A DNA stretch of 13,516 nt. Origin: a virus (lineage: Duplodnaviria > Heunggongvirae > Uroviricota > Caudoviricetes). Within the stretch, counting starts at the first letter, position 1, and the number at the start of each line of letters is the position of its first letter. The stretch is taken from positions 1-13,516 of the IMG/VR virus record IMGVR_UViG_2671180656_000012. One strand, written 5' to 3'. The position numbers are program-made. Of this stretch, positions 6,001 through 9,000 are shown piece by piece.

Positions 6001-9000
6001 GCCCTGGGTAATAAGCAACCGGATGTCCAAAATCGAGCAGAAGATCAGACGGACGCATAGCCACCTCCCAGGCGTTTAAACATTTTTCCGGACTGAAACG
6101 CCACCAGCGGATAACTCAGGGTATGAGTACGCCCCTGTACCTGGCAGACAACCTTCTGGCTTTCTGTATTGACCAGGCAAACCCGCAGAACGTGACCGTT
6201 GCTGGTGGTGAACCACTGCCCCACACGGGGGCAACGGTTGTATCGGTGATACAGGGAACTAACGACGCGGCGAATCATGGGTGCGCCTCCTTGTCAGAAC
6301 CGTTCAGTCTGGAATCAACAAGTGCAGCACCAAAAACAGCATCACCTACACGGTCGTACAGTTTGCCCGCCAGCGGAGATTCAACAGCCTTAAGCATGGG
6401 ATAAAGCTGGCTTGTCCAGATTTGGTGGATTTCTCGCAAATGCAGGTATACGCCTCTGGCGTTTTGTGCGACAGATGGCATATCAGCCGCACCAACTCCT
6501 GATAAACACCTCTCCATCTGGTTAAAGGCATTGATGTATGCCTCTTTGAACCGGGCAGCACGTTTACCCGTGAAACCCATAGCAAGAAACGCAAAGCCGT
6601 CGCGGGTTATTTGATAGCAAGGTAGTTTGCGGCCTGTGCAATCGGTGTAATCACTCACCGAAAAATTGCGGGCAGTGAATGATGCGGAACATTCAAGCGT
6701 GCGGATCTTTTTCAGTACATCGTCATGACGTTTGGAGAAGAAGTTGGCAACAGCCAGGGATGAAGTAACAGCCTGACCATCAACGATGGCAATTTCAGGT
6801 TGAGTGAGGGTTGGGATCGTAGCCATGATGGCAGCCTCCGTTGACTGTGGAAAACTTCCACCACCGGAGCTGCGAAACTCACTGGTGGCAGACTGAACAG
6901 GGTTCGCAGTACCGGCGTCAACGGAGACCGGCGAGCCTTTCGGCTCCCCTGCCCAGCCCACCATAATTCTGGCGTGCGTGAGCGCGGACGATAAAAAAGA
7001 CGCTGGCGCGTCGTATATCGCCGTTGACAATTCCGGGCTGCGACCCCCGGCACCCGCTTTATAAGGTGCCTGAACAGTGTAACGTCCCGGAATTGCAGAA
7101 TCAATATGCTGGTGGCGCTTCGCACTCAACAAAATCACGACGAAACAACCATAGTGGGCTGAAGCACTCATCCGGATAAGCATCACGCAGGTAAATAACC
7201 CGCTGTGTTTCAGGCTCCCAGCGTATAACGTGGACGCGACGCCCTCTTCCATCACGGAACCAGCGATTGAGTACTTGCATGTGTTACCTGTGAGCATAAT
7301 TACCCCTGCCAGCCCAGCGCCTGGAACAGCCCCATCTTCGGGTGATACCAGCGAGTACCCCGTGGTTCTGCTTCACTCATCATGCGATGAAAAGCAGACA
7401 TGAAGGGTTCTACTGCAACAATCGCGCGACGAGACAACAATCCATCCGGCGTCATAAATTCATGGGTGTCAGTAGGGATCTGATATGCGTTCACCAGATT
7501 GCGACATTTCGCATCTGACATACCCGTTTTCGCCACCAGCTGACGGTAGCCTGCATAACCATCGCGTATGGTGCCTCTTTTGATTTGCTCGACTGTTTCG
7601 GTAACGTGACTGACTTTCTCTTCCACCAGCTCAAGACGTCTTTGTTGGCGAACGGCTTCAAGTGCCATTGCAGCAACCATTTCGATCTGGCTCATTGGTT
7701 TACGGATTTGTTCTTCCAGTTCGCGCCAGCGATCTACCAGGCGGGCGGTGAATTCAGGGCAAAGCTGTGCGACAACAATAATGCTGTCGCGTTTGCCTCG
7801 TTCACCTTCGAATACATACGCGCTAGAAAATCGGCGAGGCCCAAGTGATTGTTTATTCTCAATTTCCACAGTCTGTGGAAATTGGATGATTCCCTTTTTA
7901 GCCAGTGTTTCAATAGTTCTCTTAACACTATCTGGTCTGCTTCCCACCAGCTCAGCTATCTCAATACTGGTCATGGATGCTTTATCGGTAAAAATTTCTG
8001 TGTTCATTGTTGGTCTCCTGTGGGCTTGTCATCTTCTGTGTTCGCAAGACCTGGGTGTGTATATGGAATGTTCGGATCCAGATGACAAAGAATGGCAACA
8101 TCCTCCGGTACACCTCGCGTTTTCCACTTTCCTACGCCTTGACTGCCACGAGTTTTCCCTTTCTTTGGAAATCTTCGACCAATAGCAGCATTGGTTTTGA
8201 ATTGAATTTTTAATATTTCATAAAGGGTCATTTTTCAGCCTTACATTGACACTTAAGTATCCGCTAATGTTAAGCAATAGAACCCAAAGTATCAAGGAAT
8301 TCTGCTACTTTGGTATCAAACGCCACAAGGGGAGAGGAAAATGAAATCTTTAGGTGAACGTCTCGTCATCGCACGACAAAAAGCTGGATTAACGCAAGAC
8401 GCACTAGCTAAGAAGGCTGGGATCACCAGAGTTGCAATCAGCAAAGCCGAGCAAGGTCTTACAAAAAGCTTCAACGGTGACACTCTTTTTAAAGTTGCAT
8501 CTGCTCTGCAATGCTCGCCGCAGTGGCTCCAGAACGGAGACGAAAAAGACAGCAATTGGGAAAATAATGTTAAATGCTGCCCTCAGAAAGACATTGCACA
8601 CTATTACCCCGTGATTAACTGGGTTCAGGCAGGCTTATTTGCTACCACAGGTGATGACTACAACATGTATGACCATGATAACTGGAGACATTCCGTAAAA
8701 TACGCTGGTGAGCGGGGATTCTGGCTGGAAGTACACGGAGACTCAATGACTTCACCTGTTGGTATTACCTTTCCTGAGGGGATGTCGATCCTTGTCAACC
8801 CAGATAAAGAAGTTTTTTCAGGGTGTTACGTAATCGCCAGAAAGAAATCCACCAATGAGGCTACATTCAAAAAATATATCTCTGAGATGGGAAGAGCTTT
8901 TCTAAAACCCCTTAATCCACAATATCCAATCATCGAAATGGACAATGATTGCGAAATAGTAGGTGTTGTGGTTGATGCCAGGTGGGATATTTTCTAATCA

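Follow-up and report, generated by a model that had tools for sequence, protein, structure and literature searches.

The lysogeny switch of phage lambda is built on a divergent cI/cro gene pair, with three operators between the two genes, three more at the promoter beyond cI, and operators that overlap the lytic promoters. A like arrangement, with promoters that are predicted ones, can be recognized in a 13,516-nucleotide stretch from a Caudoviricetes virus (IMG/VR record IMGVR_UViG_2671180656_000012, positions 1 to 13,516; hereafter the window), which, to judge from its sequence, is the early region of a phiP27-like Escherichia coli prophage of the Shiga toxin 1a (Stx1a)-converting kind. We consider here the two intergenic regions that flank its cI repressor gene (8341..8997, plus strand): 8232-8340 and 8998-9094 are very probably the oR-type and the oL/pL-type control regions, respectively, of the lysogeny switch of this prophage, each carrying 18-bp operators that would be bound by CI.

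Phages P22 and 933W provide further comparisons. The P22 repressor c2, whose DNA-binding domain is the solved one nearest to that of the window CI, binds two-fold symmetric sites of 18 bp, which are conserved in their outer halves and have four central base pairs that are variable, A/T-rich and uncontacted (PMC4267663). The Stx2 phage 933W is likewise a Stx-converting lambdoid prophage with a CI/operator set that governs induction and hence toxin-phage biology; for its repressor, a lack of cooperative binding to adjacent sites is reported (PMC3317979). The CI described here belongs to another clade, and its operator sequences differ from those of 933W. A survey of Stx-phage CI clades classified the CI proteins and left the operators unmapped (PMC8951638). 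Our literature search, with phiP27 operators and the motif words as terms, found no operator map for the phiP27-type CI clade.

Set beside these systems, the locus appears to be an ordinary lysogeny switch of a Stx phage, with a lambda-type layout, P22-type site geometry and an operator sequence of its own. Like that of lambda, its CI has an Ala-Gly cleavage site and a Ser/Lys dyad. Of its six candidate operators, named O1 to O3 between cro and cI and OLa to OLc beyond cI, the centres of O2 and O3 are 24 bp apart, as are those of lambda OR1 and OR2. From lambda the locus differs in several respects. The operators are 18 bp long (7-4-7) instead of 17 bp and unrelated in sequence; O1, at 32 bp from O2, covers the start site and not the -10; oL is only about 770 bp (767 bp) from oR; cI has a strong Shine-Dalgarno (SD) sequence, with no sign of a leaderless promoter of the pRM type; the first pL gene encodes a protein with two helix-turn-helix (HTH) domains and not N; and the pR operon includes Rha/Ant genes with C4 and isrK RNAs, together with an all-alpha Cro. 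The locus differs from P22 in the half-site (TTGATAC here, ..TTAAG in P22), in the specificity positions of repressor helix 3 (TR..K.A here, SN..Q.W in P22) and in the C-terminal domain of the repressor, which is nearer to lambda CI.

Candidate operators on both sides of cI

The original prediction placed repressor operators at both early promoters and derived them from an 8-bp inverted repeat between cro and cI and from recurrent copies of the heptamer GTATCAA. The heptamers lie where they were predicted, two of them 24 bp apart between cro and cI (8289-8295 and 8313-8319) and two as an inverted pair (9020-9026, plus strand; 9045-9051, minus strand) around the candidate pL-like promoter. When the background was counted over the whole window, one further copy was found (at 12547), giving five copies against 1.85 expected, a number reached in 4 of 200 shuffles; four of the five fall within the two intergenic regions, which together make up 206 nt. 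When all 7-mers of these regions were counted without bias, GTATCAA ranked first, and it is the sole 7-mer with at least two copies in both, while any 7-mer of that kind was seen in 22 of 2000 shuffles.

Each heptamer copy has a degenerate inverted partner 4 bp away. The unit is an 18-bp pseudo-palindrome, TTGATAC-N4-GTATCAA, with six predicted sites, three in each early control region. The anatomy first proposed thus stands in part: the heptamer is a well-conserved half-site, but the unit is the 18-bp site, and neither the heptamer alone nor the inverted repeat.

In the following, matches to the palindrome are given out of 14 and scores are those of a position weight matrix (PWM) described below. 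On the oR side, O1 (TTGACAC TTAA GTATCCG, 8246-8263; 11/14, score 15.6) covers the predicted pR start, from about -3 to +15; O2 (TAGAACC CAAA GTATCAA, 8278-8295; score 15.0) has a right half that doubles as the pR -35; and O3 (CTGCTAC TTTG GTATCAA, 8302-8319; 12/14, score 16.4) adjoins the cI ribosome-binding site. On the oL side, OLa (AAGAAAC GATA GTATCAA, 9009-9026; score 17.4) lies 8 nt upstream of the pL -35, and OLb (TTGATAC CTTA GTTACCA, 9045-9062; score 19.2) overlaps the pL spacer and -10. OLc, a weaker candidate (TCGTAAC TGAG GTATCAG, 9074-9091; 10/14, score 9.8), is an inverted copy of OLb and overlaps the SD sequence (GAGG, 9082-9085) of the gene that starts at 9095. The centres of the three oL sites are spaced by 36 and 29 bp. 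O1 and OLc were not among the sites originally proposed.

In the 13.5 kb of the window there are five palindrome matches of at least 11/14, and all of them are proposed sites. The PWM was trained on 33 sites from six other loci (two diverged viral contigs and prophages of Klebsiella, Providencia, Salmonella and Photorhabdus), none of them from the window or its close relatives. With this matrix O1, O2, O3, OLa and OLb occupy ranks 1-5 (15.0-19.2) both in the window and in the whole 49.6-kb phage, OLb having the top score of each; the next match reaches at most 12, and the mean maximum of shuffled windows is 11. Matches at 2645-2662 (10.9) and 2759-2776 (9.2) are within the shuffle range and were discarded. 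The information content of half-site positions 3-7 is 1.9, 1.0, 0.8, 1.4 and 1.7 bits, and that of the central four positions, which are A/T-rich but variable, is 0.9-1.0 bits. This profile, with high values over positions 3-7 and a centre near 1 bit, fits the P22-type site model, and the central 4 bp are probably uncontacted here as well.

Conservation was analysed at two depths. Close relatives (CI at least 74% identical) contributed 26 distinct oR and 30 distinct oL sequences; with a column taken as variable at a minor allele of at least 10%, 10 of the 84 half-site columns are variable, as against 43 of the 98 columns elsewhere in the two intergenic regions (Fisher P = 1.6e-6, for columns that are not phylogenetically independent). 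An alignment of 10 loci in five genera (Escherichia, Klebsiella, Providencia, Salmonella and Photorhabdus), gap-free over O1-O3 and with CI only 62-74% identical overall in the most diverged members, is more telling than this column test: islands of conservation stand exactly at O1, O2 and O3 between unrelated spacers, and the centre spacings are fixed at 32 and 24 bp. A site in the O1 position, 32 bp from O2, is present in all relatives; the O2 block GAAyCCAAAGTATCAA is almost invariant over the 10 diverse loci; and in O3 TGyTACTTTaGT.TC is conserved, with the 24-bp distance to O2 fixed in all loci. On the oL side, the right half of OLa (GTATCAA, or GTATCA in phiP27 and its close relatives) occupies the same position in all loci of the specificity group of the window (group 1, below), and OLb is nearly invariant. 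OLc is kept in the E. coli relatives; Providencia and Photorhabdus have a site at the equivalent place, whereas Klebsiella and Salmonella have none.

The repressor, its recognition helix and the Cro-like protein

By alignment the 218-amino acid (aa) CI (Pfam HTH_3 and Peptidase_S24) is a full-length homologue of lambda CI, with a P22-c2-like HTH and a lambda-CI-like S24 domain for autocleavage and oligomerization, and its label thus proved apt. It matches lambda repressor (3bdn) over residues 12-215 (E = 1.2e-32), and its VQAG|LF, GDSM and FKKY align to the lambda cleavage site, Ser and Lys, respectively. The N-terminal domain is nearest to P22 c2 (1adr, E = 1.1e-10; also 2r1j), followed by 434 Cro (5e-9) and 434 repressor (1e-5). 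Helix 3, TRVAISKAE, aligns to SNVAISQWE of P22 c2, and the Asn-Gly after helix 3 and the Val are kept.

The half-sites change together with this helix. Group 1, comprising the window and its relatives, has helix 3 (I/V)TRVAISKAE and GTATCAA-type sites, and every locus with the helix TRVAISKAE has sites of this type. In group 2 (Serratia; CI 49% identical) the helix is SRMAISKIE and the sites are TAAAC-N4-GTTTA. In group 3, which consists of four loci (L129, L130, L131 and L133), the helix is SRVTISKIE and the sites are TCGAAAC-N4-GTTTCGA. The 32/24-bp spacing is retained in both, except that the O1-O2 spacing in L131, read by hand, is 31 and not 32, and the half-sites specific to groups 2 and 3 are present at both oR and oL. 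As a positive control, distant homologues with the P22-c2-like helix SNAAISQWE (L109-115) carry P22-type TTAAG sites. The claim that the sites define immunity specificity is thereby supported at the level of comparison, since the outer half-site bases change with the CI recognition helix. The group 3 loci are from metagenome and genome contigs, and in L129 the order of the Rha and Ash/Rha genes is the same as in the window.

Another protein considered for operator binding is the 216-aa product of the first gene of the pL-like operon (9095..9745, plus strand; Pfam HTH_3 at residues 73-124 and HTH_19 at 150-213), which occupies the place of N in lambda. It matches phrog_4739 and phrog_4836 ('CII-like regulator'). 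This protein is variable or missing in relatives that retain the operators, and it was ruled out as the operator-binding protein on the ground that several relatives without the gene still have the sites. The covariation of the half-sites with the CI helix, together with the absence of this gene from several relatives that have the sites, ties the group-specific bases to CI and not to the two-HTH protein. The protein resembles what is described for the two-HTH CI-like proteins of Stx-phage 'Clade VIII' (PMC8951638).

The cro-like gene (8004..8231, minus strand), first of the pR operon, encodes 75 aa for which no sequence-level family was found in Pfam or in phmmer searches of the PDB. A fold search returned an all-alpha Cro fold, P22 Cro being among the closest Cro folds, so that the name cro holds at the level of the fold. 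Identity to the all-alpha Cro proteins of N15 and PY54 is only 10%, and the window protein differs from them in that its helices 2 and 3 are joined by a basic loop of nine residues (PKKGKTRGS) instead of the tight turn usual in HTH proteins. Its helix 3, SQ(G/A)VGKW, does not differ between the three operator-specificity groups (loci including L005 and L121-L133); only residues 12-13 follow them, with KT in group 1 and G/D-S in the other two. We tentatively suggest, as a rather doubtful extension, a widespread Enterobacterales immunity scaffold of O1-O2-O3 at 32/24 bp in which only the CI helix and the outer half-site bases are swapped, between three specificity groups or more, while Cro-like helix 3 stays constant. 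If so, Cro would read a group-invariant feature, such as the inner AC-N4-GT with its A/T centre, the left half of O3 or the CCAAAGT/ACTTTAG core, and would act across hetero-immune prophages. This would set it apart from lambda, 434 and P22, in which cI, the operators and cro vary together as a single module.

Promoters and other readings of the repeats

A promoter scan recognized the promoter directed at cro. Its -35 (TTGATA, 8290..8295, minus strand; 9/12, 17-nt spacer) is invariant in the 26 distinct relatives, and the form TTGnnA is retained in all three specificity groups; its -10 (TAACAT, 8267..8272, minus strand; predicted start about 8260, into the cro-like gene) reads ATGTTA on the other strand and is nearly invariant in close relatives, with a TAnnnT-type hexamer at the same place in diverged loci. 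Beyond cI the scan gave a pL-like promoter with a 17-nt spacer and a predicted start at about 9070, its -35 TTGCCA (9035..9040, plus strand; TTGCCA, TTGACA, TTGCAC or TTGCGA in relatives) and its -10 TACCAT (9058..9063, plus strand; TACCAT, TACATT or TACCTT in relatives). The predicted and conserved hexamers overlap O2 (pR -35) and OLb (pL -10), and O1 lies over the predicted pR start. Hexamers of equivalent position are present in the other genera.

The original prediction had 8232-8340 contain divergent promoters. The one directed at cro could be recognized, but the one directed at cI could not be located. The hexamers TATCAA (8314-8319) and TTGACA (8247-8252) and the left half of O3 as a -35 were considered for it and rejected as inconsistent across relatives; the extended -10 TG at the TATCAA candidate is found only in the window. 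Where most relatives read GATAC (or GAAAC/GTAAC) in the left half of O1, this phage and one relative (L041) have TTGACAC. The TTGACA just mentioned, a perfect -35 on the cI strand, results from this change, but no usable -10 lies at 16-18 nt from it. The lacking scan match leaves room for a weak, activator-dependent cI promoter.

The arms of the inverted repeat were found as described, CCAAAGTA at 8284-8291 and TACTTTGG at 8306-8313 with a gap of 14 nt, and the left arm shares 2 nt with the predicted pR -35, in keeping with the proposed overlap. One could take the O2-O3 block that they span (CCAAAGTA-N14-TACTTTGG, 8284..8313) for a single extended site of the Cro-like protein, a Rha-family protein or a host regulator instead of two CI operators. 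Even the Serratia group, with its different outer half-site bases, retains the inner CCAAAGT and ACTTTAG; extended to 11 nt the arms are complementary at 10/11; and a Cro-like helix 3 that is constant over the specificity groups must read something that does not vary between them. We consider this improbable all the same. The repeat is missing in the third specificity group despite the same Cro-like protein, its arm centres, 22 bp apart, are too distant for a small Cro-type dimer, and the 18-bp unit stands singly, without any such repeat, at O1, OLa and OLb. By itself the repeat is near chance level: a perfect inverted repeat of at least 8 bp with a loop of at most 30 nt occurs in 4.5% of shuffled 109-nt regions (P ≈ 0.045, marginal). 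It arises because O2 and O3 are near-palindromes with complementary central tetranucleotides (CAAA and TTTG), so that the centre and inner right half of O2 face the inner left half and centre of O3, O2 position i pairing with O3 position 19-i. In most relatives O3 is TACTTTAG, TACTTTTG or TACTTTCG without a compensating change in O2, and position 8312, whose G completes the repeat here, can be G, T, A or C in relatives without compensation at 8285; the pairing is therefore not selected, and we rejected the repeat as an operator unit or structural element. The GAATTC (8297-8302) on which the repeat was said to be centred is present but incidental, since its centre (8299.5) is 1 bp away from that of the repeat (8298.5) and the 6-nt O2-O3 spacer that holds most of it shows the lowest conservation in the region (GGAATT, GAGATT, GAATAT, AAAAAA, AACGAA, ATTTTA and other versions).

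Promoter function could also be invoked for the repeated words, TTGATA/TATCAA being kept solely as sigma-70 -35 elements. TTGATA does resemble the -35 consensus and is the predicted pR -35 at O2, and the scan proposed a second pL promoter starting from it at 9045 (TTGATA-18-AAAAAT). Such an account is very unlikely, as GTATCAA is retained at O3 and OLa, where no promoter is predicted, conservation also takes in the partner half-site, at a distance of 4 bp, and G/C positions that belong to no hexamer, and in the other groups the word changes with the CI recognition helix, a -35-like TTG...A being kept only at O2. Neither hexamer of the 9045 candidate, its AAAAAT -10 included, is conserved, and it was dropped. 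Least probable of all is that the inverted repeats are RNA hairpins and not DNA sites, for example in read-through or pRE-type cI transcripts, even if the folding energies are suggestive: the RNA of 8280-8320 folds at -10.9 kcal/mol (z -3.0), that of 9040-9100 forms a hairpin of -20.4 kcal/mol (z -6.8) in which OLb is paired with OLc and the SD of the 9095 gene is buried, and the two variant positions seen in the 9046-9090 arms keep G-U pairing. No intrinsic terminator was found after cI (8998-9100). Inverted operator copies give hairpin potential automatically, though; in most relatives one pair of the oR hairpin is lost uncompensated, double changes of a truly compensatory kind were not seen, and the predicted pR (from about 8260 leftward) and pL (from about 9070) transcripts each leave out one arm, so that the OLb-OLc hairpin would be present only in cI read-through transcripts and not in pL transcripts. 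In relatives from other genera a GC hairpin and T-run stand directly 3' of cI.

We therefore retain the reading of O1-O3 and OLa-OLc as CI operators, while several points weigh against it in addition to the phylogenetic dependence of the column test. The window itself was the first source of the palindrome pattern, a circularity that the PWM trained outside removes for five sites. The sixth, OLc, has a score that is not significant alone, and the SD that it overlaps would be conserved anyway. The oL spacings of 36/29 bp are not conserved (35/26 in locus L104) and not helically phased. The promoters are consensus matches only, the scan total being three against 2.4 expected by chance, and in 8232-8340 the scan shows no plus-strand, pRM-type promoter directed at cI. 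Helix 3 of the Cro-like protein does not covary with the operators, unlike in lambda, 434 and P22. Finally, the searchable literature holds no binding, footprint or transcript-start data for this phage group. Against these points stand conservation, the independently trained matrix and covariation with the CI helix, comparative evidence which together supports the placement of repressor operators at both early promoters.

The probable switch in its prophage

From the anatomy of the sites, their conservation, the covariation and the homology of the proteins we infer the following scheme. CI dimers would bind the 18-bp pseudo-palindromic operators, with O1 and O2 (three helical turns apart), O2 and O3 (24 bp apart), and OLa and OLb occupied by dimers that may cooperate. 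Since O2 covers the pR -35 and O1 the start, their occupancy would silence the pR operon and shut off the cro-like, Rha/Ant, replication and Q genes, provided that the predicted promoter is active. The pL operon would be repressed through OLb over the -10, OLa just upstream of the -35 and the weaker OLc over the leader and SD. O3, beside the cI ribosome-binding site, is the likely autoregulatory site. RecA-stimulated autocleavage of CI would release pR and pL on induction, and the Cro-like protein would then presumably lower cI.

Several Stx1a-converting phages (e.g. LC567819) match the region 7900-9300 at 100% identity, one Stx2a phage at 93.5% and phage phiP27 at 85%. Among 5,426 complete E. 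coli genomes, 237 contain matches, for the most part at 80-90%. The genes are ordered as in an early region. Leftward from 8231 the minus strand encodes the 75-aa open reading frame (ORF), a Rha-like protein, the Ash/Rha 'Ant', O-like, DnaC-like and DnaB-like replication proteins, and Q. On the plus strand the repressor and the two-HTH protein are followed by small ORFs, past which xis and int are found farther on in the phage.

Two Rfam families were detected on the minus strand at the gathering threshold, C4 antisense RNA (6881-6968, 78.8 bits) and isrK (6993-7069, 56.9 bits), both within the ORF annotated as 'antirepressor Ant' (6275-7297, Ash and Rha domains). They suggest an RNA-controlled antirepressor layer in the pR operon, like that of P1/P7 immI, and the 340-aa 'Ant' ORF call may be over-extended at its 5' end. 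Elsewhere in the window, a block GCAGTAGCAA TTGAAACAGTAGCAACGC is repeated at 11473-11508 and 12099-12134, in two adjacent and overlapping paralogous ORFs (11421-12074 and 12038-12886; phrog_368/250, function unknown).

For the biology of these phages, the sites would give a family of Stx1a/Stx2 (phiP27-like) prophages their immunity specificity and in this way help to decide which of them exclude one another, and they would be the place where SOS-triggered CI cleavage frees the lytic genes. The motif TTGATAC-N4-GTATCAA may be usable for immunity typing of prophages in E. coli, Salmonella, Klebsiella, Providencia and Photorhabdus, and the three groups in which helix and half-site co-vary on one fixed scaffold would offer a natural series for the recognition code of HTH proteins.

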